A DNA stretch of 64,000 nucleotides, from the sequence record ON528737; one strand, 5' to 3'. Under the pieces are notes generated by a model. It saw only the letters and a list, made by a program, of their open reading frames with translations. It was not told the origin of the DNA and made no database searches. Below, one piece after another: positions 3,653-44,847 of the stretch. Origin of the DNA: Shigella phage ESh27. The translations under genes were made by a program, and so were the position numbers. Positions within the stretch are counted from its first letter, which is position 1; every line of letters begins with the position of its first letter.

Positions 3653-4570
3653 ATGGATTTAGAAATGATGTTGGATGAGGATTACAAAGAAGGTATTGCA
3701 CTTGCAGACTTTAGTAACATTGCATTAGCAGCTGCATTAAACAACTTTGAAGACGGTGATAAAATTACTGTTCCGATGGTTCGCCATGTAATCTTGAATT
3801 CAATTCGTAAAAACGTAGTGATGTTCCGTAAGCAAGGTTATACAAAATTTGTATTGTGCATGGATAACGCTACTTCCGGGTATTGGCGACGCGACTTTGC
3901 TTACTATTACAAGAAAAATCGTAAAACTGATCGTGAAGCTTCAAAGTGGGATTGGGAAGGATATTTTACTGCACTCCATCAAGTCGTTGATGAGATTAAG
4001 AAATATATGCCATACGTTGTAATGGATATTGACAAATACGAAGCGGATGACCATATCGGTGTATTAACTAAATATTTGTCATTAGCTGGTCATAAGGTGT
4101 GTATTGTTGCATCAGATGGTGACTTTACACAATTACACAAATACCCTAACGTTAAACAGTGGTCGCCACCGCAGAAAAAATGGGTTAAAATTAAGAATGG
4201 TTCTGCCGAAATTGATTGCATGACTAAAATTCTTAAAGGCGACCGTAAAGATGGTGTTGCGTCTGTTCGAGTTCGTGGTGATTTCTGGTTTACTCGAGTT
4301 GAAGGCGAACGAACTCCGAGTATGAAAACAACGATTATTGAAGCAATTGCTAATGACCGTTCTCAAGCTGAAGTATTATTAAGTGCAGAAGAATATAAAC
4401 GGTATCAAGAAAATTTGGTTCTCATTGATTTTGATTATATCCCTGATAATATTGCTTCAACCATTATAGAGTATTATAACTCATATAAACAACAACCTAA
4501 AGGCAAGATTTATTCATACTTTGTAAAATCCGGCCTTTCTAAATTAACAAGTGTAATTAACGAATTCTGA
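3653..4570 (+). CDS. rnh: RNase H (5'-3' exonuclease / flap endonuclease)
   Basis: 305 aa; MDLEMMLDEDYKEG N-terminus as in T4 RNase H; SD aagagg; divergent from gene 34 as in T4. Confidence 0.93.
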   Translation: MDLEMMLDEDYKEGIALADFSNIALAAALNNFEDGDKITVPMVRHVILNSIRKNVVMFRKQGYTKFVLCMDNATSGYWRRDFAYYYKKNRKTDREASKWDWEGYFTALHQVVDEIKKYMPYVVMDIDKYEADDHIGVLTKYLSLAGHKVCIVASDGDFTQLHKYPNVKQWSPPQKKWVKIKNGSAEIDCMTKILKGDRKDGVASVRVRGDFWFTRVEGERTPSMKTTIIEAIANDRSQAEVLLSAEEYKRYQENLVLIDFDYIPDNIASTIIEYYNSYKQQPKGKIYSYFVKSGLSKLTSVINEF

Positions 4571-4847: not shown

Positions 4848-5163
4848 TATTAAACCGGTTGATGAGGCCGGTTTATCTGAACAAGAGTTAGCAGTAAAAC
4901 ACGATAAAGATGATATCGCTAAATTGCTTGACCGTCAAGAAAACGGATTCATTATCGAATCCATGGTTGAACAATTTGGTATGTCTTATTTAGAAGCAAC
5001 AACTGCTTTCTTGGAAGAAAATTCTATTCCAGAAACACAATTTGCTAAATTTATTCCTACAGGAATTGTTGAAAAAATTACAAGTGAAGCAATTGACGAA
5101 AACATGCTTCGCCCATCAGTTGCTCGTGGTGAAAAAACTAATACGTTAGATTTCTTATTATGA
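4825..5163 (+). CDS. 33: Late transcription co-activator gp33
   Basis: 112 aa (T4 gp33 is 112 aa); synteny. Confidence 0.88.
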   Translation: MTQFSLSDIKPVDEAGLSEQELAVKHDKDDIAKLLDRQENGFIIESMVEQFGMSYLEATTAFLEENSIPETQFAKFIPTGIVEKITSEAIDENMLRPSVARGEKTNTLDFLL

Positions 5164-5813
5164 TTAAAATACGCATGCCTCCTGATGGAGAACGTTATAT
5201 TAATGGAAAATCGGTATACAAACTATACTTGATGTGCAAACAACATTTTAATGGTCGGTATGACGTAATCAAATATAACTGGTGCATGCGTGTTTCGGAT
5301 AATGCGTATCAAAAACGCCGAGATAAATATTTCTTTGAGAAACTAGCAGAGAAATATAAGTTAAAGGAACTCACTTTGATATTCATCAGTAACTTAGTTG
5401 CTAACCAAGATGCATGGATTGGTGAGATATCAGACGCTGATGCATTAGTTTTCTATAGGGAATATATTGGACGTCTCAAACAGGCCAAGGAGACATTTGC
5501 TGAAGATGTACGTAACATCTACTATTTCAGTAAGAAAGTGGAAGTTAGTGCGCTTCAAGAGATATTTGATTATAATAATAAAGTTCAGTCGAGCTACATA
5601 TTTAAATTGCTACAAAGCAATATAATTTCGTTTGAAACCTTCTTGTTGTTGGATTCATTCTTGAATATTATAGATAAGCATGACGAACTTACTGACAATT
5701 TAGTCTGGCAAAATTATTCTACCAAATTAAAGGCATATCGAAAAATACTTCAAATCGATGGAAATGCTGCTAAGAAATTGTTCATAGAAACAATCAAATC
5801 ATGTAAGTATTAA
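5160..5813 (+). CDS. 59: gp59 helicase (gp41) loader
   Basis: 217 aa, matches T4 gp59 length and sequence; ATGA overlap with gene 33. Confidence 0.9.
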   Translation: MIKIRMPPDGERYINGKSVYKLYLMCKQHFNGRYDVIKYNWCMRVSDNAYQKRRDKYFFEKLAEKYKLKELTLIFISNLVANQDAWIGEISDADALVFYREYIGRLKQAKETFAEDVRNIYYFSKKVEVSALQEIFDYNNKVQSSYIFKLLQSNIISFETFLLLDSFLNIIDKHDELTDNLVWQNYSTKLKAYRKILQIDGNAAKKLFIETIKSCKY

Positions 5814-5929
5814 GCTTTATTTCTTGTGTGTTAAAATTACTTTATAAATAAATCATACCAGCTACGAGGTATAAGTGTCGTAGCAACCAACTGTAAATAA
5901 ATTAAATAATCTAAATAAAGGTAAATATA
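5814..5929 (+). promoter_or_regulatory. Gene 32 5' leader: translational operator region (autoregulation) with embedded late promoter TATAAATA at 5843-5850
   Basis: AT-rich unstructured leader upstream of gene 32 ATG; tataaata at 5843-5850; T4 gene 32 is autoregulated at this leader. Confidence 0.6.
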
Positions 5930-6832
5930 ATGTTTAAACGTAAATCTACTGCTGACCTCGCTGCTCAAATGGCTAAACTGAACGGTAACAAAGGTTTCTC
6001 TTCAGAAGATAAAGGCGAATGGAAGCTGAAGCTAGATGCATCAGGTAATGGTCAAGCGGTAATTCGTTTCTTGCCAGCAAAAACTGATGACGCACTACCA
6101 TTTGCAATTCTTGTTAACCACGGTTTCAAGAAAAATGGTAAATGGTATATTGAAAATTGCTCTTCTACACATGGTGATTACGACTCTTGTCCTGTATGTC
6201 AGTACATTAGTAAAAATGACCTGTACAATACCAACAAAACTGAATATTCTCAACTGAAACGTAAAACTTCTTATTGGGCTAATATTCTGGTTGTTAAAGA
6301 CCCTCAAGCTCCAGATAACGAAGGTAAAGTATTTAAATATCGTTTCGGTAAAAAGATTTGGGACAAAATCAATGCAATGATTGCAGTTGATACCGAAATG
6401 GGTGAAACTCCAGTTGATGTTACTTGCCCGTTTGAAGGTGCTAACTTCGTTCTGAAAGCTAAGCAGGTTTCTGGTTTTAGCAACTATGATGAATCTAAAT
6501 TCTTGGGTCAATCTGAAATTCCTCGTATTAATGACGAAGCATTCCAGAAAGAACTGTATGACCAGATGGTAGACCTTACTACTTTGACGGCTAAAGACCA
6601 GTTCAAATCCTTCGAAAAATTAAATGAATCTTTCGCTAAGGTTCTTGGTACTGCGGCTCTTGGTGGTGCAGCAGCCGCAGCAGCTTCTGTTGCAGATAAA
6701 GTTGCTTCTGACCTTGATGATTTTGATAAAGACATGGAAGCCTTTAGTTCTGCAAAAACTGAAGATGACTTCATGAGCTCTACCTCATCCTCTGATGATG
6801 GCGACCTTGATGACCTGTTAGCTGGTCTATAA
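5930..6832 (+). CDS. 32: ssDNA-binding protein gp32
   Basis: 300 aa; [36 protein letters not shown], acidic C-terminal tail, Zn-binding C/H cluster; near identical to T4 gp32. Confidence 0.96.
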
Positions 6833-6838
6833 TAAATC

Positions 6839-6860
6839 GGGAGACTTCGGTCTCCCTTTT
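6839..6860 (+). terminator. Intrinsic terminator after gene 32 (GGGAGACTTCGGTCTCCC + TTTT)
   Basis: 7-bp GC stem, UUCG tetraloop, T-run. Confidence 0.8.
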
Positions 6861-6887
6861 GAGTATCTGTAAATTACCGAAAAGGTT

Positions 6888-6918
6888 GTTTACTTCTTCC
6901 CTGGATGTGTTAGTATAG
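6888..6918 (+). promoter_or_regulatory. T4-type early promoter (-35 GTTTAC ... -10 TAGTATAG)
   Basis: gtttac at 6888-6893, gtgttagtatagac 22 nt downstream; same architecture recurs upstream of several early ORFs. Confidence 0.6.
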
Positions 6919-6945
6919 ACTTATCAACAACATGAGGAAATCAAA

Positions 6946-7338
6946 ATGGAAATCGGAAAATCTTATATCATTAACCCTTTATTTAAAGACGACTTTGTTC
7001 AAGAAGCACCACACAATAACGCTAAGATGTTAAAATTGATTGAACTCCATGGGCCTAGTTTTGTTGTAAACGGAATGGAACCTGATTATGATAGCGATAC
7101 GCCAAACGTAGTAAGTGTAACTATGGAAGATGGTACTGTATGTTCTGCCGCTGGTGAAATTGAAACTTATTTTGAGATTTATCCTGACGAGTTCAAATAC
7201 TTTACTGAGGTAGATTTAGTAAAGCCTCAACCTACTAACGAAGGTATAACTTTAGGTGTAACAAAAATCCATTGTATCGTAGATGAAACCAACGTCGACG
7301 AAATCATCGAACTTTTGCAAAAAACTTTTAAAAAGTAG
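6946..7338 (+). CDS. Hypothetical early protein (frd.3/frd.2 position)
   Basis: 130 aa ORF, SD gaggaaa, own early promoter. Confidence 0.6.
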   Translation: MEIGKSYIINPLFKDDFVQEAPHNNAKMLKLIELHGPSFVVNGMEPDYDSDTPNVVSVTMEDGTVCSAAGEIETYFEIYPDEFKYFTEVDLVKPQPTNEGITLGVTKIHCIVDETNVDEIIELLQKTFKK

Positions 7339-7400
7339 TGTATAATCAGATAGGGTTATGTTATAGTAGCCCTATCAAATCAAAAGTGAAGGAGAATAAA

Positions 7401-7649
7401 ATGAGATTACAACGTCAGAGCATCAAAGATTCTGAAGTTAAAGGTAAATGGTATTTCAACATCGTTGGTAAAGACGCTGAACTCCTTGAACAAGCTGAAG
7501 AAGCTTTACGTGAAATGGGTTGGAATGAAGAATGTGATGGATGTCCACTCTACGAAGACGGCGAAAGTGCAGGATTCTGGATTCACCACTCTGACGTTGA
7601 ATCGTTTAAAGCCGATTGGAAAGTTGTTAAGAAAAATCTGAGGAAATAA
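7401..7649 (+). CDS. Hypothetical small early protein (frd.1 position)
   Basis: Track ORF 7338-7649; internal ATG at 7401 has strong SD aaggaga and TGTATAAT -10 at ~7338-7345 upstream. Confidence 0.5.
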   Translation: MRLQRQSIKDSEVKGKWYFNIVGKDAELLEQAEEALREMGWNEECDGCPLYEDGESAGFWIHHSDVESFKADWKVVKKNLRK

Positions 7650-7651
7650 AA

Positions 7652-8239
7652 ATGCTTAAATTAGTATTCGCGTGTGCTCCGACTAAAACAGTTGATGATA
7701 AACTGGAATATGCTTTTGGATTAGGTGATGGGCTGCCATGGAAGCATATCAAACAAGATATGAGTAACTTTGTTGCTCGCACTAAAAACACTGTAATGGT
7801 TATGGGTGCTAAGACTTTTGCATCATTACCTCGTCTACTCCCAGATCGTACTCATGTGGTTGTCACTGATATGGCCAGAAAACTGCCTAGGACTAAAACT
7901 GATGAACTTGCACGGTTCTATATCACCCAAGCAGAATTTATTACCTTGGTAATGGGTAGTGAAATTAACTTGTTAAGCCCTTCAACCGACGTACCGTTTA
8001 AACTTTCTACTGAACATGTCGATGTCTCGGTTATCGGCGGTCCTGCTCTACTTAAACAAGCATTGCCTTATGCTGATGAAATTGTTATGACTAAAATCAT
8101 TAAGAAATGTCGTGTTAATTCAGACGTTCAACTTGATAAAGATTTCATCCAAGATATTATGCTTCAACGTTCTATGGTAGAATCTCATTACTACAGAATC
8201 GATGAACTCACCGAAATTACTGAGAGCGTATATAAATGA
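7652..8239 (+). CDS. frd: Dihydrofolate reductase
   Basis: 195 aa; FGLGDGLPW, VIGGPALL, C-terminal TESVYK as in T4 DHFR. Confidence 0.95.
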   Translation: MLKLVFACAPTKTVDDKLEYAFGLGDGLPWKHIKQDMSNFVARTKNTVMVMGAKTFASLPRLLPDRTHVVVTDMARKLPRTKTDELARFYITQAEFITLVMGSEINLLSPSTDVPFKLSTEHVDVSVIGGPALLKQALPYADEIVMTKIIKKCRVNSDVQLDKDFIQDIMLQRSMVESHYYRIDELTEITESVYK

Positions 8240-9096
8240 AACAATACCAATACCTGATTAATGATATCCTAGAAAATGGCTACGAAACAGACGACCGTAC
8301 AGGCACAGGAACAATTGCCCTGTTCGGAACTAAATTACGTTGGGATCTGACTAAAGGATTCCCTGCAGTAACAACTAAGAAATTAGCATGGAAAGCTTGT
8401 ATTGCCGAGTTACTGTGGTTCATGTCAGGTTCTACTAATGTTAATGAATTACGTCTTCGTACTCATGGTAGTCTAATTGAAGGTAAAACTATTTGGGACG
8501 ATAATTACGAAAATCAGGCAAAAGACCTTGGTTATCATAGTGGTGAACTTGGTCCTATATATGGTAAACAATGGCGTGATTTCGGTGGTGTGGACCAATT
8601 AGTTGAAACAATCGACCGTATTAAAAAATTACCAACTGATCGCCGTCAAATTGTTTCTGCCTGGAATCCGGCCGAAATAAATCAAATGGCTCTTCCTCCT
8701 TGCCATATGTTCTATCAGTTCAATGTGCGTAATGGTCATCTTGATTTACAATGGTATCAACGCAGTGTAGATGTTTTCTTGGGCCTGCCGTTCAACATTG
8801 CCTCGTACGCTGCCTTGACGCATATTGTGGCTAAGATGTGTAATCTTATCCCGGGTGATTTAGTGTTCTCAGGCGGCAATACGCATATCTACAGCAACCA
8901 CGTAGAGCAATGCAAAGAAGTTTTACGTCGTGAACCTAAAGAGTTGTGTTCTCTTGAAATTAATTGGCCTAGTAATTTTGAGAATTGGCCTACAAAAATC
9001 CAAATGGACTGGGTTACTGGAACGATGACACATTCTGATTTCGTTCTTAAAAATTACGAATCACATCCAGCTATCAAAGCTAAAATGGCGGTATAA
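8236..9096 (+). CDS. td: Thymidylate synthase (uninterrupted, no group I intron)
   Basis: 286 aa continuous ORF; active-site PPCH motif; T4 TS is 286 aa. Confidence 0.95.
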   Translation: MKQYQYLINDILENGYETDDRTGTGTIALFGTKLRWDLTKGFPAVTTKKLAWKACIAELLWFMSGSTNVNELRLRTHGSLIEGKTIWDDNYENQAKDLGYHSGELGPIYGKQWRDFGGVDQLVETIDRIKKLPTDRRQIVSAWNPAEINQMALPPCHMFYQFNVRNGHLDLQWYQRSVDVFLGLPFNIASYAALTHIVAKMCNLIPGDLVFSGGNTHIYSNHVEQCKEVLRREPKELCSLEINWPSNFENWPTKIQMDWVTGTMTHSDFVLKNYESHPAIKAKMAV

Positions 9097-9097
9097 A

Positions 9098-9352
9098 ATG
9101 ATTTTACGTTTTATTAATTCATATGGCACCACAATTTTTGAAATGAAAAATCCAAGTGAACTGGATATCCCTTCACCAAATAGTGAAATCACAGTTAAAG
9201 GTGAACGATTCGTTTGTTATTCACATGAACGAATTTATGAATATCGTGAATTTTGTGGTGGATTCGGTATGGAAAAAGAACCATTGGTTTATTTCGATAT
9301 CACGGTCTTGACTCCTAAAGAATACAAAGAAATTATTGCTAAGAATAATTAA
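9098..9352 (+). CDS. Hypothetical protein
   Basis: 84 aa ORF between td and nrdA. Confidence 0.5.
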   Translation: MILRFINSYGTTIFEMKNPSELDIPSPNSEITVKGERFVCYSHERIYEYREFCGGFGMEKEPLVYFDITVLTPKEYKEIIAKNN

Positions 9353-9378
9353 CGCTTCAGTTTAAAAGTGTATAATAA
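9350..9378 (+). promoter_or_regulatory. Putative promoter with extended -10 (TGTATAAT) upstream of nrdA
   Basis: gtgtataat at ~9368-9376. Confidence 0.4.
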
Positions 9379-9439
9379 ATTAACGGGATAAATACTATCC
9401 CGTTTGGAGTAATGTCTATCAACCTATACCGAGGAATAT

Positions 9440-11695
9440 ATGCAAGTAACTAAGAGCAGTGGGGTATCCCAAAATTTTGATGCACAGAAAATTATTCAAG
9501 TATTAACTTGGCAATGTGAAGGAACACAAATCGACCCATATGAATTGTACGAAGAAATTAAGACCCATCTTGTTGACGGGATGAGCACCAAAGATATTCA
9601 GAAGATTTGTATTAAAGTTGCAGCCAACTCGATTTCTGTCGAAGAACCTGATTATCAATATGTTGCCGCTAAAGGATTAATGTTTGCACTTCGTAAAGAT
9701 GTGTACGGACAGTTTGAACCTCCTGCTTTTATCGACCATATCTCGTATTGTGTTAATGAAGGCAAATACGACCCTGAGTTGTTGTCTAGATATTCTGCAG
9801 AAGAAATCATTTATCTCGATTCTCAGATTAAACATGAACGAGATTTTGATCTGACTTATGCTGGTGCTATGCAGCTTAAAGAAAAATACCTGGTTAAAGA
9901 TAAAACAACTGGGAAGATTTATGAAACTCCACAGTTTGCTATCATGGCTATTGGTATGGCCTTACATCAAGACGAAACTCATGACCGTTTGAAACATATT
10001 ATTCGTTTTTATGATGCTGTTTCTACTCATCAAGTTTCATTGCCTACCCCAATTATGGCAGGTGCTCGTACTCCAACTCGCCAGTTCTCTAGTTGTGTAG
10101 TTATTGAAGCCGGTGATTCGTTAAAATCTATTAACAAAACTTCAGCATCAATTATTGAATATATTTCTAAACGAGCTGGTATTGGTATCAACGTTGGTAT
10201 GCTTCGTGCAGAAGGTTCTAAGATCGGTACGGGTGAAGTTCGACATACGGGTGTTATTCCGTTCTGGAAACATTTCCAAACTGCAGTAAAATCTTGTTCT
10301 CAAGGTGGTATTCGTGGTGGTGCTGCTACGGCGTATTATCCGATGTGGCACTTAGAAGTAGAGAACCTGTTGGTTCTGAAAAATAACAAAGGTGTGGATG
10401 AAAACCGTATTCGACATATGGACTACGGAATTCAGATTAATGACCTTATGATGGAACGCCTTGGTAAAAATGATTATATTACTTTATTTAGCCCTCACGA
10501 AATGTCAGGCGAACTATATTACTCATTCTTTGAAGATCAAGATAAATTCCGTGAGCTTTATGAGAAAGCTGAAAAAGACCCAACAATCAGAAAGAAAAGA
10601 ATCAAAGCACTAGAACTCTTTGAATTGTTCATGACTGAACGTTCTGGTACTGCTCGAATTTATCCACAGTTTGTTGATAACACGAATAACTACACTCCGT
10701 TTATTCGTGAAAAAGCTCCAATTCGTCAGAGTAACTTATGCTGTGAAATCGCTATTCCAACTAATGATGTGAATGGTCCTGATGCTGAAATTGGTTTATG
10801 TACGCTGTCTGCATTCGTGCTAGATAACTTTGATTGGCAAGACCAAGACAAAATTAATGAGCTCGCTGAAGTCCAGGTACGTGCATTGGATAATCTATTA
10901 GATTATCAAAGCTATCCTGTTCCTGAAGCTCTGAAGGCTAAGAAACGTCGTAACTTGGGTGTCGGTGTGACGAACTATGCTGCATGGTTAGCTTCTAACT
11001 TTGCTTCATATGAAGACGCTAACGATTTGACTCATGAATTGTTTGAGAGATTGCAATATGGCCTTATCAAAGCTTCAATCAAACTCGCCAAAGAAAAAGG
11101 ACCTTGTGAGTATTATTCAGACACTAAATGGTCTAGAGGCGAATTACCTATCGACTGGTACAATAAAAAGATTGACCAAATCGCAGCCCCGAACTACGTC
11201 TGTGACTGGGAAGAACTTCGAGCTGAACTCAAAGAACATGGAATTCGTAACAGTACACTTAGTGCTCTCATGCCATGCGAATCAAGCAGTCAAGTCTCAA
11301 ATAGCACAAACGGTATAGAACCACCTCGTGGACCTGTAAGTATTAAAGAATCTAAAGAAGGCAACTTCCGTCAGGTTGTTCCTAATATCGAACATAACAT
11401 GAGTCTTTACGACTACGCGTGGAAACTTGCTAAGAAAGGTAATAAACCTTATTTGACCCAAGTTGCTATCATGTTGAAATGGGTGTGCCAATCTGCTTCT
11501 GCTAATACTTACTATGACCCGGCAGTATTTGAGAAAGGTAAAGTGCCAATGTCAGTAATGCTTGACGATCTGCTTTACTTCTGGTACTTTGGCGGAAAAA
11601 ATCTCTACTATCATAACACTCGTGATGGGTCAGGTACAGATGACTATGAATTAGAAACACCTAAAGCCGAAGATTGCTCTGCTTGTAAGCTTTAA
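9440..11695 (+). CDS. nrdA: Aerobic ribonucleoside-diphosphate reductase large subunit
   Basis: 751 aa; ATP-cone N-terminus, catalytic NLCCEI and C-terminal CxxC; T4 NrdA ~754 aa. Confidence 0.95.
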   Translation: MQVTKSSGVSQNFDAQKIIQVLTWQCEGTQIDPYELYEEIKTHLVDGMSTKDIQKICIKVAANSISVEEPDYQYVAAKGLMFALRKDVYGQFEPPAFIDHISYCVNEGKYDPELLSRYSAEEIIYLDSQIKHERDFDLTYAGAMQLKEKYLVKDKTTGKIYETPQFAIMAIGMALHQDETHDRLKHIIRFYDAVSTHQVSLPTPIMAGARTPTRQFSSCVVIEAGDSLKSINKTSASIIEYISKRAGIGINVGMLRAEGSKIGTGEVRHTGVIPFWKHFQTAVKSCSQGGIRGGAATAYYPMWHLEVENLLVLKNNKGVDENRIRHMDYGIQINDLMMERLGKNDYITLFSPHEMSGELYYSFFEDQDKFRELYEKAEKDPTIRKKRIKALELFELFMTERSGTARIYPQFVDNTNNYTPFIREKAPIRQSNLCCEIAIPTNDVNGPDAEIGLCTLSAFVLDNFDWQDQDKINELAEVQVRALDNLLDYQSYPVPEALKAKKRRNLGVGVTNYAAWLASNFASYEDANDLTHELFERLQYGLIKASIKLAKEKGPCEYYSDTKWSRGELPIDWYNKKIDQIAAPNYVCDWEELRAELKEHGIRNSTLSALMPCESSSQVSNSTNGIEPPRGPVSIKESKEGNFRQVVPNIEHNMSLYDYAWKLAKKGNKPYLTQVAIMLKWVCQSASANTYYDPAVFEKGKVPMSVMLDDLLYFWYFGGKNLYYHNTRDGSGTDDYELETPKAEDCSACKL

Positions 11696-11750
11696 GACTT
11701 TTGATTATAATTTACTCATGGATGAGTTAATAACTAAGTGAGAAAATATA

Positions 11751-12926
11751 ATGAGTACAGTTTTTAACACGCAACAAGTCGATGTTTTGAATGAACCGAT
11801 GTTCTTTGGTTCTGGTCTTGGCCTCGCACGGTATGATATTCAGCGTCATAAAGTTTTCGAAGAACTTATTGAAAAGCAATTGTCGTTTTTCTGGCGCCCA
11901 GAAGAGGTAAACTTGATGTTGGACTCTGCGCAGTTCAATAAGCTTCCTCAGTTCCAACAGGACATCTTTACAAACAATCTTAAGTATCAATCATTATTAG
12001 ATTCTATACAAGGCAGGGCCCCATCTGCGGTACTTATGGCACTTATTTCTGACCCTTCATTAGATACATGGGTTGCAACATGGACATTCAGTGAAACTAT
12101 TCACTCTCGTTCATATACTCATATTATGCGAAATCTTTATACCGATCCATCTAAGGTATTTGATGAAATTGTATTAGACGAAGCAATCATGAAACGAGCT
12201 GAATCAATAGGTAAATATTATGATGATGTTCTAGTCAAGACTCGCCATTGGGAAAATGCTAAGGAAAATTATGAGTATTCACTAGGCTCATGCCAGCAGA
12301 ATGATATTGAGATGTACGAAGAAATAATGTTTAACGCCAAGCGTGAGCTAATGAAATCTCTTTATCTCTGTTTGCACGTTATCAACTCCTTAGAAGCTAT
12401 TCGTTTTTACGTATCATTTGCATGTACTTTCAACTTCCATAAAAATATGGAAATTATGGAAGGCAATGCAAAGATTATGAAGTTCATTGCTCGTGACGAA
12501 CAACTCCACCTTAAGGGTACTCAGTACATTATCCGTCAACTTCAATCTGGTACTGACGGCGATGAGTGGGTTCAAATTGCTAAAGAATGTGAACAAGAAG
12601 CAGTTGACATTTTTATGGAAGTAAATAGTCAAGAGAAGGAATGGGCTGCGCACCTCTTTAAAGACGGTACATGTCCAGGTATAAATACACAGAGTATGTG
12701 TGCTTTTGTTGATTACTTGACTGTGTCTCGTATGAAACAGTGTGGTTTGCCGTGTCCAATTACTGATGCTCCGACCAAACATCCGTATCCTTGGATTCGT
12801 GAATATCTGAACTCTGATTTAGTTCAAGCAGCTCCTCAGGAAGTTGAAATCAGTTCTTATCTTGTTGCACAAATTGATAATGATGTAGACCAAAATGTAA
12901 TCAATTCATACAAAAAATATTTCTAA
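11751..12926 (+). CDS. nrdB: Ribonucleoside-diphosphate reductase small subunit (uninterrupted, no intron)
   Basis: 391 aa continuous ORF; di-iron ligand motifs (ExxH). Confidence 0.95.
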   Translation: MSTVFNTQQVDVLNEPMFFGSGLGLARYDIQRHKVFEELIEKQLSFFWRPEEVNLMLDSAQFNKLPQFQQDIFTNNLKYQSLLDSIQGRAPSAVLMALISDPSLDTWVATWTFSETIHSRSYTHIMRNLYTDPSKVFDEIVLDEAIMKRAESIGKYYDDVLVKTRHWENAKENYEYSLGSCQQNDIEMYEEIMFNAKRELMKSLYLCLHVINSLEAIRFYVSFACTFNFHKNMEIMEGNAKIMKFIARDEQLHLKGTQYIIRQLQSGTDGDEWVQIAKECEQEAVDIFMEVNSQEKEWAAHLFKDGTCPGINTQSMCAFVDYLTVSRMKQCGLPCPITDAPTKHPYPWIREYLNSDLVQAAPQEVEISSYLVAQIDNDVDQNVINSYKKYF

Positions 12927-12930
12927 GGAC

Positions 12931-12950
12931 GGGACTTCGGTCCCACTTTA
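12931..12950 (+). terminator. Hairpin GGGACTTCGGTCCC with weak T-tract between nrdB and denA
   Basis: UUCG tetraloop hairpin, followed by actttatt. Confidence 0.45.
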
Positions 12951-12952
12951 TT

Positions 12953-13363
12953 ATGAAAGATATTGCCGCCGAATATTCCTTTATTAAATATATAGAATTG
13001 GAGCTATTAGAAGATGCAACAATTAAAACCATTGATGCCCCTAATAAGAAAAATGTCATATACGCTATTGCTATAGATGACGAACTTGTGTATATTGGTA
13101 AAACCAAGAATTTAAAGAAACGCATTAACTATTATCGAACAGCCATAAATCGAAAAGACCAGACTTCAGATTCAAGAAAATCACTTATGATTTTGGATGC
13201 CTTAATGCAAGGCAAAAAGGTTGAATTCTGGGCCCGCCAATGTTTTGACCTTTCAGTCACTAACGAACTCGGTTCAATGACCATTGCAACAATGGACCTT
13301 GAAGAACCGCTTTTTATCAAAAAGTTCAACCCGCCTTGGAATATCCAACATAAGAAAAAGTAG
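12953..13363 (+). CDS. denA: Endonuclease II (GIY-YIG family, host DNA degradation)
   Basis: 136 aa; YAIAIDDELVYIGKT...RINYY motif; C-terminus PLFIKKFNPPWNIQHKKK as in T4 DenA. Confidence 0.92.
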   Translation: MKDIAAEYSFIKYIELELLEDATIKTIDAPNKKNVIYAIAIDDELVYIGKTKNLKKRINYYRTAINRKDQTSDSRKSLMILDALMQGKKVEFWARQCFDLSVTNELGSMTIATMDLEEPLFIKKFNPPWNIQHKKK

Positions 13364-13392
13364 TTTACATACCACAAGGATTGTGGTACAAT
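13363..13392 (+). promoter_or_regulatory. T4-type early promoter (GTTTAC ... TACAAT)
   Basis: gtttac 13363-13368, tacaat 13387-13392. Confidence 0.55.
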
Positions 13393-13408
13393 TTAAAAAA
13401 CTAACTGA

Positions 13409-14542
<1,134 letters not shown>

Positions 14543-14544
14543 TG

Positions 14545-14574
14545 GTTTACAAACACCAAGGAAGGTGTTACTAT
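14545..14574 (+). promoter_or_regulatory. T4-type early promoter (GTTTAC ... TACTAT) upstream of alc
   Basis: gtttac 14545-14550, gtgttactat ~14566-14574. Confidence 0.55.
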
Positions 14575-14604
14575 GGCTTTTATCAACAACACGAGGAGAA
14601 AATT

Positions 14605-18368: not shown

Positions 18369-18488
18369 TGAGAGCTATCTCATTACTATCGAGAATGGTC
18401 ATAAATCTGAGCACTACCAACTTAACCTGTCTAATCCGGTTAAAGGTATTGTTGAATCAGAATCTGTTTATATCTCCTAAGGATTGTT

Positions 18489-19481
18489 ATGTTACCTGTC
18501 GTCGGAAAACTTATTTCTCCAAAAGAACTGGCTGAGATTATTCCTTTGTCGGAAGCTTACGCATCACAAGTGGCTTCTCATCGCGAACAAGTTAATTCGA
18601 TTATGAATGGTGAAGACCCACGCAAACTTATTGTTGTAGGTCCTTGTTCAATTCATGACCCTATTGCTGCTGTTGAATACGGCAAACGTCTGGCTGAACT
18701 TCAAACTCGTCTTCCTAATGTTCTGTTAGTGATGCGCGTTTATTTTGAAAAGCCTCGAACTACCGTAGGTTGGAAAGGTCTTGTAAATGATCCATATCTT
18801 GACGGAAGTTTTGATATGAACCACGGTCTTATAGTTGCACGAACATTGTGTCGTAAACTTCTACGTATGGGACTTCCATTAGCAACTGAAGTATTAGACC
18901 CATTCACGATTAAGTATCTTTCTGGTATTTTCTCATGGGTTGCTATTGGCGCCCGTACGACTGAAAGTCAGACACATCGTGAAATTGCTTCAGGTCTACC
19001 GATGTGCGTAGGCTTTAAGAACGCAACCAATGGTTCTATTAAAGTAGCTACAGACGCGATGTATAGTGCCGCCTGGCCTCATCGGTATATGGGTATGGAC
19101 GTCGATGGTACTGTAGGCATTGTTGAAGCTGAAGGTAATCAGAATACGCATATCGTATTGCGTGGCGGGACCAACGGCCCGAACTATCATTCTTCTGATA
19201 TTCAAGAAGCTTCTAACAAAGCAAGGGCAGTAGGTCTGAATCATTATGTAATGGTTGACTGTAGCCATGCAAACGCTGATGGGCATTATAGCAATCAAAT
19301 TGGTATTGGTAAAAATTTAGCAGCTAATGATTTGGTCAAAGGAATTATGATAGAATCGTTCCTACATGAAGGAAATCAAAAAATTTCTGATAATATGTCC
19401 TATGGCGTTTCCGTTACCGATGCGTGCATCAGTTGGGAACAAACTAAAGAGCTGTTAACTTATATTAATAAGGTTCAATAA
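18489..19481 (+). CDS. 3-deoxy-D-arabino-heptulosonate-7-phosphate (DAHP) synthase, class I (AroG/AroF/AroH-like)
   Basis: 330 aa; GPCSIHD, RVYFEKPRTTVGWKGLVNDP, IGARTTESQTHRE, GFKN, DCSHAN, IESFLHEGNQ match the E. coli AroG family including metal ligands (Cys, His, Glu, Asp); stop overlaps cd start (TAATG). Confidence 0.85.
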   Translation: MLPVVGKLISPKELAEIIPLSEAYASQVASHREQVNSIMNGEDPRKLIVVGPCSIHDPIAAVEYGKRLAELQTRLPNVLLVMRVYFEKPRTTVGWKGLVNDPYLDGSFDMNHGLIVARTLCRKLLRMGLPLATEVLDPFTIKYLSGIFSWVAIGARTTESQTHREIASGLPMCVGFKNATNGSIKVATDAMYSAAWPHRYMGMDVDGTVGIVEAEGNQNTHIVLRGGTNGPNYHSSDIQEASNKARAVGLNHYVMVDCSHANADGHYSNQIGIGKNLAANDLVKGIMIESFLHEGNQKISDNMSYGVSVTDACISWEQTKELLTYINKVQ

Positions 19482-21123: not shown

Positions 21124-21493
21124 GTTAAATCGAGGAGCCGTCGAATTGTCTGATTATCGATTTGCGAATCGGTATGTTTTAGAAGTACCGCCCCGACAAT
21201 TTTACGGTGTACCTCTTGAATGTTGTTCTTATAACGGTAAGTGCATGCTACCCCGAGGTGATGGCTAATCGGGAGTACGCCTCAAGGCCTATATATCCAT
21301 CAGTATATATCTTATCCTCGAGAAATCGAACCCGGAACCTTTAAGCTAACGGTGTGCAACAGATAAGAGTTATAAGGTATGATGACGGGTTTATGGTTAT
21401 CCTGTCGTTAAATATCCAAAACCTATGTTCCCCTTGAGGGCTTGAGCAGGCAATGTCAATAAGTCCTGCATTTTCATTTAAAGAGAATTTATA

Positions 21494-38978: not shown

Positions 38979-38983
38979 AATAA

Positions 38984-39727
38984 TTACCTTAAACGGCCTT
39001 TAACATATCCATCTGGGATGGATAACGGATTTACTAATTTATTTATAGCCCCGTTATTTACCCATATTCTGCCGGTGGTCGTAGGTTTTACTTCACAACC
39101 CTTTCTAGATTTTCTATTAAGTTGGACCATTCCTTTTACAAATCCTTCAGGCATCGGGTCCTCGGCTGATATAAATCTGTTTTCTTTACCGTTGTTAACA
39201 CAAATTTTATTTAGAGTTGTAGGATTTTTAGGACCTTTAATTTTATCAATCTTTGGCTTTCCTGTACCATACCGCCCGTGGCATGTTGGGTCTTCAGAGT
39301 ATCGACGTTTATTTGTTTCAGATAGTTTTCTTTTTGTTTCTTCCGATCTGTGTTTTCCTAAAAGATTATGACCAAGCCTCTTTATTCGTTCTTTAGCACT
39401 ATTAGACATTTTAGTCTTATCAGCTTCGGTGTACTTATACCTTCCACCTTCACCGCCTTGGCGCATATTATAATACTCGTTAGATTTGACCAAATCCTCT
39501 GTTACTAACTGAGCTTCGTATTCTAAAGCTTCAGCGGAAGTTTCAAATTGTTTAATTATTGAACGTTTAAATGATTCTTCTCCGTATTTTTTGATAGCGC
39601 GATTTAAGGCAACACCTGACCCTAGATACGAATCATTTAAATTTTCTGTAGAATGTTTGCCAATGTACTTTTTACCATTGATTAAATTTACGGTCTCATA
39701 AACAAAGTGATACATACTCTTTTCCAT
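38984..39727 (-). CDS. GIY-YIG family homing endonuclease (SegE-like)
   Basis: GIY-YIG N-terminal module (FVYETVNLINGKKYIGKHST...YLGSGV...N...E) and basic DNA-binding C-terminus; start taken at ATG 39725-39727 (alternative 39713-39715, MYHFVYET); track start 39766 lies upstream of the late promoter. Confidence 0.7.
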   Translation of the reverse strand: MEKSMYHFVYETVNLINGKKYIGKHSTENLNDSYLGSGVALNRAIKKYGEESFKRSIIKQFETSAEALEYEAQLVTEDLVKSNEYYNMRQGGEGGRYKYTEADKTKMSNSAKERIKRLGHNLLGKHRSEETKRKLSETNKRRYSEDPTCHGRYGTGKPKIDKIKGPKNPTTLNKICVNNGKENRFISAEDPMPEGFVKGMVQLNRKSRKGCEVKPTTTGRIWVNNGAINKLVNPLSIPDGYVKGRLR

Positions 39728-39743
39728 GTAATAAATATAGTTA

Positions 39744-39751
39744 TATTTATA
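39744..39751 (-). promoter_or_regulatory. T4-type late promoter (TATAAATA) for the GIY-YIG endonuclease gene
   Basis: Plus tatttata = minus TATAAATA, ~17 nt upstream of the endonuclease ATG. Confidence 0.55.
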
Positions 39752-39764
39752 ATGAGGAAATATC

Positions 39765-40433
39765 ATGATCGATAAAGACTATATTGAAGAGTTACGTGCT
39801 CTTTCTGATAAAAAGGAAGCCAAAGCTAAACTGTTCGAATATGCGAAACAATTTGGCATTAGTGTTAAGAAAACAAAATCATTCGATAATATTGTTATTG
39901 ATATCGAAGAAGCTCTTAACGCACTGGCTGATGAACCGTTACCTGAAACTGATGGATTATCTATTACTGATTTAATTACTGCCGCAGATGATGTGGACGG
40001 TGTTAATTTCACCAACGAAGAAGTTAAAGAAGAAGCTATTCTGTTGTTTGATTCTCCAACAGAACAAGTTGAAGTATTAGAAGTTGTCGAACAAGAAAAA
40101 GAATTCGACCATGATAAATTTGAAGAAGCAATTACTCAGGTTGTTGAATCTGAAAAGGAGCCTGAGACAGAGGTAAATAAAGAAGTAAAATTTGTTCTGC
40201 CTGAAAATTTTAGTCCTACACTCATTAAATTAGGCAAAGGCCTAGGATATGTTACTGTTCCTTGGTGGATTTATCAATGGATAGCCGAAACACCTGATTG
40301 GAAATCTCGCCCAACCAGTTTTGTGCACGCTTCTGCTCACCAAACATTATTTAGCTTAATTTATTATATTAATCGCGATGGATCAGTTCTAATTCGTGAA
40401 ACTCGTAATTCTTCTTTCATAACATTAAAATAA
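39765..40433 (+). CDS. inh: Inh, inhibitor of prohead protease gp21
   Basis: 222 aa acidic protein immediately upstream of hoc, as T4 inh. Confidence 0.7.
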   Translation: MIDKDYIEELRALSDKKEAKAKLFEYAKQFGISVKKTKSFDNIVIDIEEALNALADEPLPETDGLSITDLITAADDVDGVNFTNEEVKEEAILLFDSPTEQVEVLEVVEQEKEFDHDKFEEAITQVVESEKEPETEVNKEVKFVLPENFSPTLIKLGKGLGYVTVPWWIYQWIAETPDWKSRPTSFVHASAHQTLFSLIYYINRDGSVLIRETRNSSFITLK

Positions 40434-42520: not shown

Positions 42521-43528
42521 ATGTTTAAGAAATACAGCAGTCTTGAAAACCACTACAATAGCAAGTTTATTGAGAAAATTCGTTCACAAGGACTTGATGT
42601 AGGCGTTTGGGTAGCACGTGAGAAAATCCATGGGACCAACTTCTCGTTAATAATTGAACGTGACAACGTCACATGCGCCAAGCGCACAGGCCCTATTCTT
42701 CCAGCAGAAGATTTTTATGGTTATGAAATAGTACTCAAAAAGTATGATAAAGCTATTAAAGGCGTTCAAGAAGTCATGGGCAGTATTTCAACTTCAGTGC
42801 CGGTGACATATCAAGTCTTTGGTGAATTCGCTGGTGGTGGAATTCAGAAAGGTGTTGACTACGGTGAAAAAGATTTCTATGTATTCGATATCATCATAAA
42901 CACTGAAAGCGGTGATACTTATTACATGAGTGATTACGAAATGCAAGATTTCTGTAATACGTTTGGTTTTAAAATGGCACCAATGCTTGGACGTGGAACA
43001 TTTGATGCTCTTATCATGATTCCAAACGACCTTGATTCCGTCTTAGCCGCTTATAACGCTACTGCATCAGAAGACCTTGTCGAAGCAAATAATTGCGTAT
43101 TTGATGCTAATGTTATTGGCGATAATACGGCAGAAGGTTATGTTCTGAAGCCTTGTTTCCCTAAATGGCTGCCAAACGGTACTCGTGTAGCGATTAAGTG
43201 CAAGAACTCTAAATTCAGTGAAAAGAAAAAGTCTGATAAGCCTATTAAAACTCAGGTTCCATTAACTGAAATTGACAAAAACTTGCTTGATGTTCTAGCT
43301 TGTTATGTTACATTAAATCGTGTTAATAATGTTATTTCTAAGATTGGGACTGTAACGCCAAAAGATTTTGGCAAAGTGATGGGATTGACTGTTCAAGATA
43401 TTCTGGAAGAAACTTCTCGTGAAGGTATTGTATTAACATCATCTGATAATCCGAATCTTGTTAAGAAAGAATTAGTCCGAATGGTGCAAGATGTTCTGCG
43501 TCCTGCATGGATTGAATTAGTATCATAA
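42521..43528 (+). CDS. rnlB: RNA ligase 2
   Basis: 335 aa; [19 protein letters not shown], active-site KIHGTNFS (KxHG), C-terminal [11 protein letters not shown] as in T4 Rnl2. Confidence 0.92.
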
Positions 43529-43530
43529 CA

Positions 43531-43560
43531 AAAAAAAAAGGGACCGTAAGGTCCCTTTTT
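43531..43560. terminator. Bidirectional intrinsic terminator (A9-GGGACCGTAAGGTCCC-T5) between rnlB and gene 24
   Basis: Perfect hairpin flanked by A-run and T-run; convergent genes. Confidence 0.85.
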
Positions 43561-43563
43561 CGT

Positions 43564-44847
43564 TTATTCATCTATAATAATTTTAGGCAATTTAACACCA
43601 AGTAAAACAGACAAGTCTGAACGTCCTGCCATTTTATCCATGTCCCCGCCATCAATTACTCTCGCTTCTTTTTCATCTTTTGCTACTGTGTAAGGATTTG
43701 CTGATAAAGCATATCTAACCAATAAACCTATAGATGGTTGTAAGCTTTCCGGATCAACTACAACTTTAAATGCACCGACATGTTCCGGGTCGTCTAAATC
43801 CATTCCTTCAGTGTATGGAGCATAAAAGATGGACCCTACAATTTCTTTTTCGCCGATATTTTCTACAACACCCACAATAACATAATCTAACGGACTGTTA
43901 GTATCGCAATAAAGCGGTAAACCATTAGCTAAGAACCCGTAAGCATTTTGTGAAAGATACTTATCATCTTCTGGTTTATGTTTTAACCAACCGGAAGCAG
44001 CAAGAATAGCAGCTGCACGAGCTGAAGCTACACAAAACGTCGCAGTATAAGTTGACTCTTTTTGAATGTGGGATACCATTTCACACACCATTCGATATAA
44101 CGAACGACCTGCTTCCGGAGCGGATGCATAGCTCAAGTCAATAAATCCAGTGTCAGTAATTCCAGTAACTTTATAACGTTTCGATACAGTAATTAAAGAC
44201 TGAAGAATATCTTTATTAATTTCATCAGCCATTTCAGTAGCAAGCAAATCTTCTAAGAAGTTAGGGGCATCAAATCCATTCGCTTCCAAATCTTGCGCTA
44301 ATTCAACCGTGAGACCGGTTTTAAGTTTACGAGATTTGACTGAAGTTTGCCATTTATTAATCTGGAATCTTGCATCAGAAATTTCGCTACCAGAGCTTTC
44401 AAATTTGCTTGTCACCGCTGCATCTGAAAATAACCGTACCTTTAAATGAACGACTGCAATCTGAAGAGCCAATTCTAGATCACTTTCTTGAATATCTGCA
44501 AATGGCGTATCTTCTAACACTTTATAGACGATATTATTATATTTGAAAAAATCGCCTTTATTTAGTGTGACTTTTGATTCTTCTGTGAGCTCGGTAATTT
44601 TTTCTCGGTCTACATATCCAGCTTCACCTGCATAAGTAGCACCAGTTTTAAACGTTAATTCGTTGTCTGGGTTAAGATATTTGATACCATAAAAAGCAGC
44701 AACAGGTTGATTAGTTCTTTGTGTTGCTACAATGTCAGAATATATTAATTTAGTCGTAGCGCGAGTCAAAGCAACGAGATTTGGGCGACCAATTGAGTTG
44801 CTAGTAGACGTTGTAGATTCACGCAATAATTTTTGGATTTTACTCAT
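43564..44847 (-). CDS. 24: Capsid vertex protein gp24
   Basis: 427 aa; near identical over long stretches to T4 gp24 (LRESTT...SIGRPNLVALTRATTKLIYSDIVATQRTNQPVAAFYGIKYLNPDNE). Confidence 0.96.
   Translation of the reverse strand: MSKIQKLLRESTTSTSNSIGRPNLVALTRATTKLIYSDIVATQRTNQPVAAFYGIKYLNPDNELTFKTGATYAGEAGYVDREKITELTEESKVTLNKGDFFKYNNIVYKVLEDTPFADIQESDLELALQIAVVHLKVRLFSDAAVTSKFESSGSEISDARFQINKWQTSVKSRKLKTGLTVELAQDLEANGFDAPNFLEDLLATEMADEINKDILQSLITVSKRYKVTGITDTGFIDLSYASAPEAGRSLYRMVCEMVSHIQKESTYTATFCVASARAAAILAASGWLKHKPEDDKYLSQNAYGFLANGLPLYCDTNSPLDYVIVGVVENIGEKEIVGSIFYAPYTEGMDLDDPEHVGAFKVVVDPESLQPSIGLLVRYALSANPYTVAKDEKEARVIDGGDMDKMAGRSDLSVLLGVKLPKIIIDE

Follow-up and report, generated by a model that had tools for sequence, protein, structure and literature searches.

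The window, a 64,000-nt stretch of Shigella phage ESh27 (ON528737), belongs to a Mosigvirus (RB69-type Tevenvirinae), the genus from which all of its best matches come. It shares 95 to 98% identity with RB69 and phiC120 and is colinear with both across all 64 kb (blocks of 94 to 98% identity to RB69), the exceptions over the whole window being two insertions and one deletion. It contains a nucleotide-metabolism cluster with the gene order 32, frd.2, frd.1, frd, td, nrdA.2, nrdA, nrdB, denA, rnlA. The features of the cluster and its surroundings are as follows.

5160 to 5813, + strand: gene 59, helicase loader (Pfam T4_Gp59_N, 1e-50; T4_Gp59_C, 2e-44)
5814 to 5929, + strand: 59-32 spacer, 116 bp, corresponding to the T4 segG locus but empty (T4 map; PMC2988022, Table 1)
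5930 to 6832, + strand: gene 32, single-stranded DNA-binding protein (Pfam gp32, 1e-60)
6833 to 6945, + strand: 32-frd.2 spacer, 113 bp, without RB69ORF245c and without a seg ORF
6946 to 8239, + strand: frd.2, frd.1 and frd (dihydrofolate reductase) (Pfam FRD2, DUF5417 and DHFR_1; RB69 synteny)
8236 to 9096, + strand: td, thymidylate synthase, 286 aa (Pfam Thymidylat_synt)
8758 to 8795, + strand: equivalent of the 38-bp I-TevI homing site, -27 to +11 (alignment; motif and cut distances from PMC2988022)
9098 to 9352, + strand: nrdA.2 homolog (DUF5496; profile match)
9440 to 11695, + strand: nrdA, ribonucleotide reductase large subunit, 751 aa (Pfam ATP-cone, Ribonuc_red_lgN and lgC)
11696 to 11750, + strand: nrdA-nrdB spacer, 55 bp, identical to that of RB69, the empty counterpart of the mobE locus
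11751 to 12926, + strand: nrdB, ribonucleotide reductase small subunit, 391 aa (Pfam Ribonuc_red_sm)
11872 to 11876, - strand: site corresponding to the MobE nicks (T2 nrdB nt 122 to 126, noncoding strand; PMC2790892)
12407 to 12424, + strand: nrdB intron insertion point (12423/12424) and I-TevIII cut equivalents (alignment; PMC1865063)
12953 to 13363, + strand: denA, endonuclease II (Pfam GIY-YIG; phrog_1111, 4e-63)
38984 to 39715, - strand: segE-like gene for a free-standing GIY-YIG homing endonuclease, 243 aa from its likely start

As an earlier note on this DNA had reported, td (8236 to 9096) and nrdB (11751 to 12926) are single continuous ORFs, and nrdA is followed by nrdB after 55 bp. 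The Thymidylat_synt profile covers td unbroken (profile positions 1 to 266 of 266, 3e-97), and the gene measures 861 nt in the window, in RB69, in intron-less T2 and in spliced T4. Alignment to T2 and spliced T4 is free of gaps at the intron position of T4 and AV110, which corresponds to 8784/8785 in the window; no intron insertion was found at this conserved point when td was aligned to T2, RB69 and spliced T4. Similarly, nrdB (1,176 nt, compared to 1,179 nt in T2) is colinear with T2 and spliced T4 through the T4 intron position at 12423/12424, and these alignments show no intron insertion at the conserved point.

The flanks of gene 32 are equally compact. The 32-frd.2 spacer contains a terminator-like hairpin, GGGAGACTTCGGTCTCCC, followed by TTTT; the spacer lacks a seg ORF, as the note had stated, and the endonuclease panel described below gave no match there. 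The note had, however, placed T4 segG after gene 32, whereas segG lies between genes 59 and 32 and it is frd.3 that follows gene 32 (PMC2988022, Table 1). In the window neither flank of gene 32 is occupied, so this misplacement leaves the absence unchanged. None of the 55-, 116- and 113-bp spacers offers ORF-sized space. An equation of RB69ORF245c with T4 frd.3, based on equal position and length, was rejected, as the two show no similarity.

Group I core elements inside td or nrdB, the observation that the earlier note named as contradicting it, were searched for with a covariance-model scan in permissive mode, and none was found. The group I core model RF00028 gave no match at an E value of ≤1 between positions 5800 and 13500, and no intron match appeared in the whole 64-kb window at an E value of ≤0.1. 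The same scan recovered both T4 introns as positive controls (RF00028, 40.3 bits, E value of 9e-8, and 35.7 bits, E value of 2e-6). A negative scan of the whole window in Rfam gathering mode was discarded as uninformative, because in this mode the known introns of T4, AV110 and a20 go undetected as well.

In tblastn and phmmer searches, I-TevI, I-TevIII, MobE (full length, from mogra), SegD and SegG gave no match in the td-nrdB region or its spacers, and SegG gave none within the window. The only matches of the panel in the window are the segE-like product and DenA. Beyond the panel, the endonuclease census draws on the colinearity of the window with RB69 together with the published lack of homing endonuclease genes in that phage (PMC2993671). 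The GIY-YIG ORF following nrdB was rejected as a homing endonuclease gene; it is denA, a conserved host-DNA nuclease gene whose product is 76.9% identical to T4 DenA and whose position is common to T4 and RB69. Two further hits were taken as chance: a match to the I-TevIII C terminus at 43724 to 43816 (E value of 0.2 to 0.5), which lies antisense to gene 24 when mapped onto RB69, and a MicX match at 43525 to 43637 (28 bits, compared to a gathering score of 75 bits).

The sequence, tblastn, phmmer and the intron scan agree that 8236 to 12926 is free of intron-borne and intergenic homing endonuclease genes, as the note had claimed. Nothing mobile lies between 5814 and 13363, and the genes are contiguous. 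Gene continuity, synteny and the empty spacers are direct observations, and since the finding is an absence, the question of chance does not apply to it.

The window resembles RB69 (AY303349/NC_004928) in its gene 32-rnlA order, its uninterrupted td and nrdB and its identical nrdA-nrdB spacer, with 95.3% DNA identity across the 8.8 kb of the gene 32-rnlA cluster. It differs from RB69 in lacking RB69ORF245c, in carrying a DAHP-synthase insert and the segE-like gene, and in lacking the 3-nt deletion that RB69 has at the MobE nick equivalent. The intron-less td and nrdB alleles of the Tequatrovirus T2, which recombines with T4, are the classical experimental recipients of T4 elements. Like T2 (AY262132), ESh27 has an uninterrupted td of 861 nt with CAACG at -27 to -23, an uninterrupted nrdB and a short nrdA-nrdB spacer (51 bp in T2). 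However, the exons of the two phages are only about 75 to 80% identical. The td-nrdB cluster genes of T4 (NC_000866) are orthologous and in unchanged order, but the td intron with I-TevI, mobE, the nrdB intron with its defunct I-TevIII, and segG are missing from the window; T4 additionally has nrdA.1 and frd.3.

Alignment to the intron-containing T4 alleles, as the earlier note had proposed, located the homing-site equivalents of td and nrdB at 8758 to 8795 and 12407 to 12424. I-TevI recognizes a CXXXG (5'-CNNNG-3') motif, cuts 23 and 25 nt upstream of the insertion point and generally tolerates changes in its homing site (PMC2988022). The CAACG motif is retained at 8758 to 8762 (-27 to -23), which predicts cuts at 8761/8762 on the top strand and at 8759/8760 on the bottom strand. 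Over the 38-bp site, the window matches T2 at 27 positions and T4 at 32 (11 and 6 differences, respectively), and over the approximately 20-bp primary binding region centered on the insertion point it matches T2 at 12 of 20. The note's description of the target sites as intact therefore does not stand for I-TevI: the motif is kept, yet the site has diverged.

I-TevIII cuts 14 and 16 bp upstream of the nrdB insertion point (PMC1865063), which maps to 12409/12410 and 12407/12408. From -40 to +40, the window matches T2 at 70 of 80 positions. Within the I-TevIII region (-16 to -1), it differs from T4 at -14, -8 and -2, the bases being C, A and A in the window but T, T and G in both T4 and a20. The MobE nicks have been mapped to nrdB nt 122 to 126 (PMC2790892). 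At the equivalent positions the window reads GAAAAGCAATTGTCGTTTTTCTGG, which is nearer to the sensitive T2 allele (27/35 matches) than the immune T4 allele is (21/35).

Occupied alleles of these loci exist within the same genus. Among approximately 140 to 150 RB69-type records, about 20 carry the td intron, about 8 the nrdB intron, 2 mobE and 10 the segE-like gene, counts taken from megablast tables and not from a curated genus-wide tally. The td intron is present in AV110, F27 and TuIa, for instance. The AV110 td exon 2 is 96% identical to that of the window, and in the AV110 and F27 td exons no T4-like co-conversion tract was found past position -1. The intron of these two phages is only 90% identical to that of T4, so T4 itself is not its recent source. 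The a20 nrdB intron measures 1,090 nt and has a 269-aa HNH ORF, and nrdB exon 1 of this phage is 97 to 100% T4-like over its final ~100 nt, marking a co-conversion tract. In mogra, a tract that is 96 to 100% identical to T4 comprises the last ~50 nt of nrdA, mobE and nrdB up to nt ~125 to 128, ending next to the mapped MobE nicks (nt 122 to 126; PMC2790892), and its flanks are 98 to 100% identical to the window.

These invaded Mosigvirus alleles (AV110, F27, TuIa, a20 and mogra) thus have the backbone of the window plus the elements and short donor-type tracts, and both the occupied alleles and the co-conversion tracts are observed directly. A megablast search with the window flanks and T4 segG found no T4-type segG in an RB69-type backbone (best full-length match, 91.3%), although this chimeric query separates the genera poorly, genes 59 and 32 being conserved between them.

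The cluster of ESh27 is very probably an ordinary uninvaded allele of the RB69-type (Mosigvirus) nucleotide-metabolism cluster. Intron and homing endonuclease content at these loci is a presence/absence polymorphism within the genus, very probably generated by endonuclease-initiated gene conversion (homing). The absence could instead be secondary, if the td or nrdB intron, or mobE, was present in an ancestor and was later removed precisely, as recombination with a relative lacking introns could do. Such recombinational loss would leave few traces, and occupied and empty alleles do coexist and recombine in one genus, producing mosaic patches such as the small stretch at nt 351 to 450 of the window td that diverges from RB69. 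Nevertheless, no T4-like co-conversion footprint lies beside any of the three sites in the window. From -30 to +20, td differs from RB69 by a single base, and nrdB nt 1 to 180 and the 55-bp spacer are RB69-type. Moreover, empty alleles far outnumber occupied ones in the genus, and those of RB69 are among them. We consider secondary loss very improbable. The idea that the ORFs or spacers hide the cryptic or degenerate remnant of an intron or endonuclease arose only because the Rfam gathering threshold misses ORF-bearing phage introns. No remnant was found: the genes match their intron-less alleles in length (td measures 861 nt in all four phages compared), the validated permissive scan and the endonuclease panel (tblastn and phmmer) were negative there, and the spacers, at most 116 bp, are identical or near-identical to those of RB69. 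The lengths, the scan and the panel refute this idea at the sequence level and leave it practically no probability.

Alternatively, the empty state could persist because synonymous changes in the target sites protect td and nrdB from the I-TevI, I-TevIII and MobE enzymes of relatives. In td, where exons flanking resident introns carry T at -1 and A at -4, the window carries C and G, respectively; nrdB has the three differences from T4 and a20 described above, and 11 of the 38 I-TevI site positions are unlike T2. In addition, RB69 has been reported to exclude T4 completely, and recombination between the two has not been seen (PMC2993671). However, the CAACG motif is retained at the exact distance, I-TevI is broadly tolerant of homing-site changes (PMC2988022), and from +1 to +20 the window exon 2 is identical to the invaded, intron-hosting alleles of AV110 and F27. 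The differences at -1 and -4 lie between the cut and the insertion point, a segment expected to be co-converted with the intron, and are more plausibly a result of homing than an obstacle to it. The window-like flanks of mogra mobE and the nearness of the nick site to sensitive T2 likewise argue against resistance, which seems unlikely. Preferring the uninvaded allele, we infer that the empty sites of the window may still be cut by the corresponding enzymes.

The earlier note also called the phage an intron-less, endonuclease-poor recipient background for T4 elements, and each part of this description holds only within limits. It is intron-less at td and nrdB. Because nrdD, the third gene that hosts an intron in T4, falls outside the window, this stretch cannot justify the term for the entire phage. 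It is endonuclease-poor relative to T4 but not endonuclease-free, as the note missed the SegE homolog at 38984 to 39715 (- strand), a gene situated outside the 8236-to-12926 interval. T4 SegE is a free-standing GIY-YIG homing endonuclease that targets uvsW. The segE-like product is 48.6% identical to it over nearly the full length (E value of 1.5e-75). It falls in phrog_314, "homing endonuclease" (3e-43), and profile searches detect an N-terminal SegE-type GIY-YIG catalytic domain, with matches to PF19835 (29.7 bits; cutoff, 25) and PF01541 GIY-YIG (25.8 bits; cutoff, 22.6); NUMOD3 is matched as well. The longest ORF of this gene extends to 39766. Relative to RB69, the gene is a 742-bp insertion at the inh-uvsW spacer, and it is complete in only the 10 phage records, other RB69-type records having a clean empty site. 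Like T4 segE, it occupies the inh-uvsW spacer immediately upstream of uvsW; it shares the orientation of its T4 counterpart and is sporadically distributed. Its product exceeds T4 SegE in length by ~40 aa and has diverged from it, with a putative activity and target. T4 has six endonuclease loci within the syntenic interval (segD, segE, I-TevIII, mobE, I-TevI and segG), of which only the segE locus is occupied in the window; ESh27 is empty at td, nrdB, nrdA-nrdB, 59-32 and 23-24 and occupied at inh-uvsW only. The recipient reading is partly supported, on the basis of natural evidence from the same genus, whose members carry the td intron, the nrdB intron and mobE, but the exclusion of T4 by RB69 (PMC2993671) counts against it.

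The absence of introns and homing endonuclease genes from this cluster is already known, being the published state of RB69 and the documented norm of this phage group. Absence is the norm among T-even relatives and T4, published as an outlier with 15 homing endonuclease genes, is the exception; alone, the finding carries little weight. Two cautions accompany it: the GIY-YIG ORF adjoining nrdB is no homing endonuclease gene, and a negative Rfam scan at the gathering threshold does not exclude ORF-bearing phage introns. Its modest practical value is that, for a second genus, it supplies the precise sequences and coordinates of the empty sites of three well-studied homing systems. Paired with mogra, AV110 and a20, the window provides natural before/after comparisons, usable for co-conversion tract lengths, target tolerance and the cross-genus spread of homing elements. 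It is possible, although we put it forward only tentatively, that T4-type elements are now spreading across the genus boundary to RB69-type phages, with the exact preinvasion alleles preserved in the window. As the window and mogra are 98 to 100% identical around the T4-like mobE tract, ESh27 would be a competent natural recipient. If true, this would contradict the 2010 view of RB69-type genomes as lacking homing endonuclease genes and genetically isolated from T4.

The window derives from a Mosigvirus, one of the RB69 group of T-even-type phages. Window positions 5800-14600 show 97.7% identity to phiC120 and 95.3% to RB69 (AY303349), both at full coverage, and RB69 aligns with the entire 64-kb window by blastn in six colinear blocks of 94-98% identity. 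The gene order around td and nrdB is as follows, every call resting on Pfam or PHROG matches together with the curated RB69 annotation.

Genes of the td-nrdB cluster
5160-5813, 59
5930-6832, 32
between 32 and frd, frd.2 and frd.1
7652-8239, frd
8236-9096, td
9098-9352, nrdA.2
9440-11695, nrdA
11751-12926, nrdB
12953-13363, denA
13418-14542, rnlA

The td gene measures 861 nt in the window, in RB69, in the intron-less phage T2 (AY262132) and in spliced T4 (NC_000866). Alignment of genomic td from T4 and the Mosigvirus phage AV110 to the window is interrupted at their introns alone, placing the td insertion point at window 8784|8785. Similarly, nrdB is colinear with T2 and spliced T4 through the T4 intron position, at window 12423|12424. 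Both genes are thus uninterrupted, as the earlier note had claimed with coordinates and lengths that are all correct. The 55-bp gap it gave between nrdA and nrdB was confirmed from the sequence and is the same sequence in RB69. The 59|32 and 32|frd.2 spacers measure 116 bp and 113 bp, respectively. Using tblastn and phmmer, with full-length I-TevIII from phage a20 and full-length MobE from phage mogra among the queries, no match to I-TevI, I-TevIII, MobE, SegD or SegG was found in the cluster region. The downstream side of gene 32 indeed lacks a seg ORF, its 113-bp spacer showing no SegG or SegD match. However, T4 segG was wrongly placed after gene 32: it lies between 59 and 32, upstream of 32, and frd.3 is the next gene after 32 (PMC2988022 Table 1). 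In the window, gene 32 has an empty spacer on either side. A 136-aa GIY-YIG ORF directly after nrdB was rejected as a homing endonuclease, because it shares 76.9% identity with T4 DenA and occupies the denA (endonuclease II) position conserved in T4 and RB69.

An Rfam scan of the whole window at the gathering threshold (50 bits for RF00028) gave no match, a negative that is meaningless because this mode also misses introns that T4, AV110 and a20 are known to carry. Those introns, in td and nrdB, bear endonuclease genes; they score 36-40 bits and are detected only in permissive mode, a mode that finds both T4 introns (RF00028, 40.3 bits, E 9e-8; 35.7 bits, E 2e-6). In this T4-validated mode, window 5800-13500 yielded no match at E<=1 and the whole window no intron match. 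The group I core inside these ORFs that the earlier note named as contrary evidence is therefore absent. Phage group I introns can be present even where a default Rfam scan comes back empty. The host gene of the third T4 intron, nrdD, lies outside the window.

I-TevI has a 38-bp site, prefers 5'-CXXXG-3' and cleaves upstream of the insertion point, at distances of 23 and 25 nt (PMC2988022). The window carries this motif as CAACG at 8758-8762, exactly at -27 to -23. Across the site (-27 to +11), it matches T2, the classical experimental recipient, at 27 of 38 positions and T4 at 32 of 38 (counted from the aligned sequences). Exon 2 of td is identical from +1 to +20 to the exons around the resident intron in AV110 and F27, and the junction differs from theirs only at -1 (C versus T) and -4 (G versus A). 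At the td 5' splice site, AV110 combines exon A at -4 with intron GCCTAGG (AV110 3745-3775), and T4 combines G with GCCTGAG, which may reflect co-variation in the P1/internal guide pairing.

In the I-TevIII region of nrdB, three positions within -16 to -1 distinguish the window from T4, and the window matches T2 at 70 of 80 positions from -40 to +40. In T2 nrdB, the MobE nicks fall on the non-coding strand at nt 122-126 (PMC2790892), equivalent to window 11872-11876. Over nrdB nt 107-141, the window matches the sensitive T2 at 27/35 positions and the immune T4 does so at 21/35. In RB69, the sequence exactly at the nick equivalent has diverged and lacks 3 nt (GAAATCC---TGTC, nt ~120-130), whereas window 11870-11885 and a20 keep the T2-like GAAAAGCAATTGTC; because of this difference, MobE sensitivity could differ between RB69 and the window phage. 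The I-TevI, I-TevIII and MobE sites are recognizable and, judged from sequence, plausibly competent. They are nevertheless diverged rather than "intact" as first described, with 11/38 mismatches to T2 at the I-TevI site.

Among roughly 140-150 RB69-type records in the phage collection, these elements are sporadic. About 20, including AV110, F27 and TuIa, have a td intron that encodes a 245-aa homolog of I-TevI; this homolog is 88.6% identical to T4 I-TevI and the intron 90% identical to that of T4. In ~8 (e.g., a20), nrdB contains a 1,090-nt intron with a 269-aa HNH ORF, and mogra and KAW3E185 have mobE in the nrdA|nrdB spacer. No T4-type segG was found on an RB69-type backbone in the collection. 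In mogra (650-1525), flanks 98-100% identical to the window enclose a tract 96-100% identical to T4. The tract takes in the final ~50 nt of nrdA and all of mobE and stops at nrdB nt ~125-128, where it adjoins the published MobE nicks (nt 122-126; PMC2790892). This is a natural MobE homing footprint, and it implies that a Tequatrovirus-to-Mosigvirus transfer took place recently. In a20 (600-1815), nrdB is T4-like over ~100 nt at the end of exon 1 and ~10 nt at the start of exon 2, and RB69 type again beyond that; the unequal tract lengths are consistent with a cut 14-16 bp upstream of the insertion point. The two relatives bear clear homing footprints, and the window therefore represents the "before" state in natural invasions that have been documented.

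Compared to RB69, the whole window contains only two insertions of >150 bp.

Insertions relative to RB69 and the genes they carry
18384-19477, insertion 1, DAHP synthase gene (PF00793, 5e-75; phrog_5045)
18489-19481, + strand, AroF/AroG-like DAHP synthase ORF, 330 aa, between cd.2 and cd
38979-39720, insertion 2, GIY-YIG ORF (PF19835 SegE_GIY-YIG, above curated cut-off; phrog_314 "homing endonuclease," 3e-43)
38984-39766, - strand, SegE-like gene, homing endonuclease gene by sequence, inh|uvsW spacer

The DAHP synthase gene, an auxiliary metabolic gene, is found in about 139 Mosigvirus records and is absent from RB69, which is therefore the exception. The SegE-like ORF shares 48.6% identity with T4 SegE along almost the full length (E 1.5e-75) and sits immediately upstream of uvsW, the T4 segE locus. 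The insertion starts immediately 3' of TTATTACATGG, downstream of a late-promoter-like TATAAATA box that is also present at the RB69 empty site and used there ahead of uvsW; given this arrangement, the likely start codon is the ATG at 39715 (243 aa). Only 10 phage records carry the gene; RB69 and phiC120-type relatives lack it, and the remaining RB69-type records have a clean empty site. The claim that intergenic homing endonuclease genes are missing thus holds within 8236-12926 but not window-wide. "Endonuclease-poor" is a fair description, as one of the six T4 endonuclease loci in the syntenic interval (segD, segE, I-TevIII, mobE, I-TevI and segG) is occupied.

Smaller differences were also observed. 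RB69ORF245c (75 aa) is missing at 32|frd.2 (window 6833-6945, compared with RB69 1531-1908). A direct repeat of the ribosome-binding region, ATCAACAA(C)ATGAGGAAA, flanks this ORF on both sides in RB69, suggesting that the cassette may have been gained or lost via short homology. The ORF shows no similarity to T4 frd.3 at the same position. Within td, nt 351-450 (window 8586-8685) form a mosaic patch with 78-82% identity to RB69 and AV110, compared to at least 94% in the flanking td sequence; the patch does not resemble T4 either (about 76% identity). Near rIII/30.9, window 21224-21375 is a divergent spacer of ~150 bp versus ~50 bp in RB69, and at ~36950, near uvsY.-1/uvsY.-2, ~88 bp are deleted relative to RB69; neither contains an ORF.

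Taken together, the cluster is very probably an ordinary uninvaded allele of an RB69-type phage, in a genus whose polymorphic occupancy would arise through endonuclease-driven gene conversion. Resistance of the target sites could also explain the empty loci, but this is unlikely given the retained CAACG motif in td, the documented tolerance of I-TevI to site changes, and the existence of invaded relatives with flanks identical to those of the window. Precise secondary loss of the elements is more improbable still, as donor-type footprints are absent, and a hidden intron or endonuclease remnant is refuted, with a negligible chance of being real.

That td and nrdB are uninterrupted is correct and already known. 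The proposed T4 co-infection assay is questionable, because RB69 is reported to exclude T4 completely, with no recombination seen between them (Petrov et al., PMC2993671). A broader reading, which concerns the relatives more than the window sequence, is supported by the mogra footprint and offered tentatively: T4-type elements may now be entering RB69-type phages, with the window keeping the exact pre-invasion alleles.
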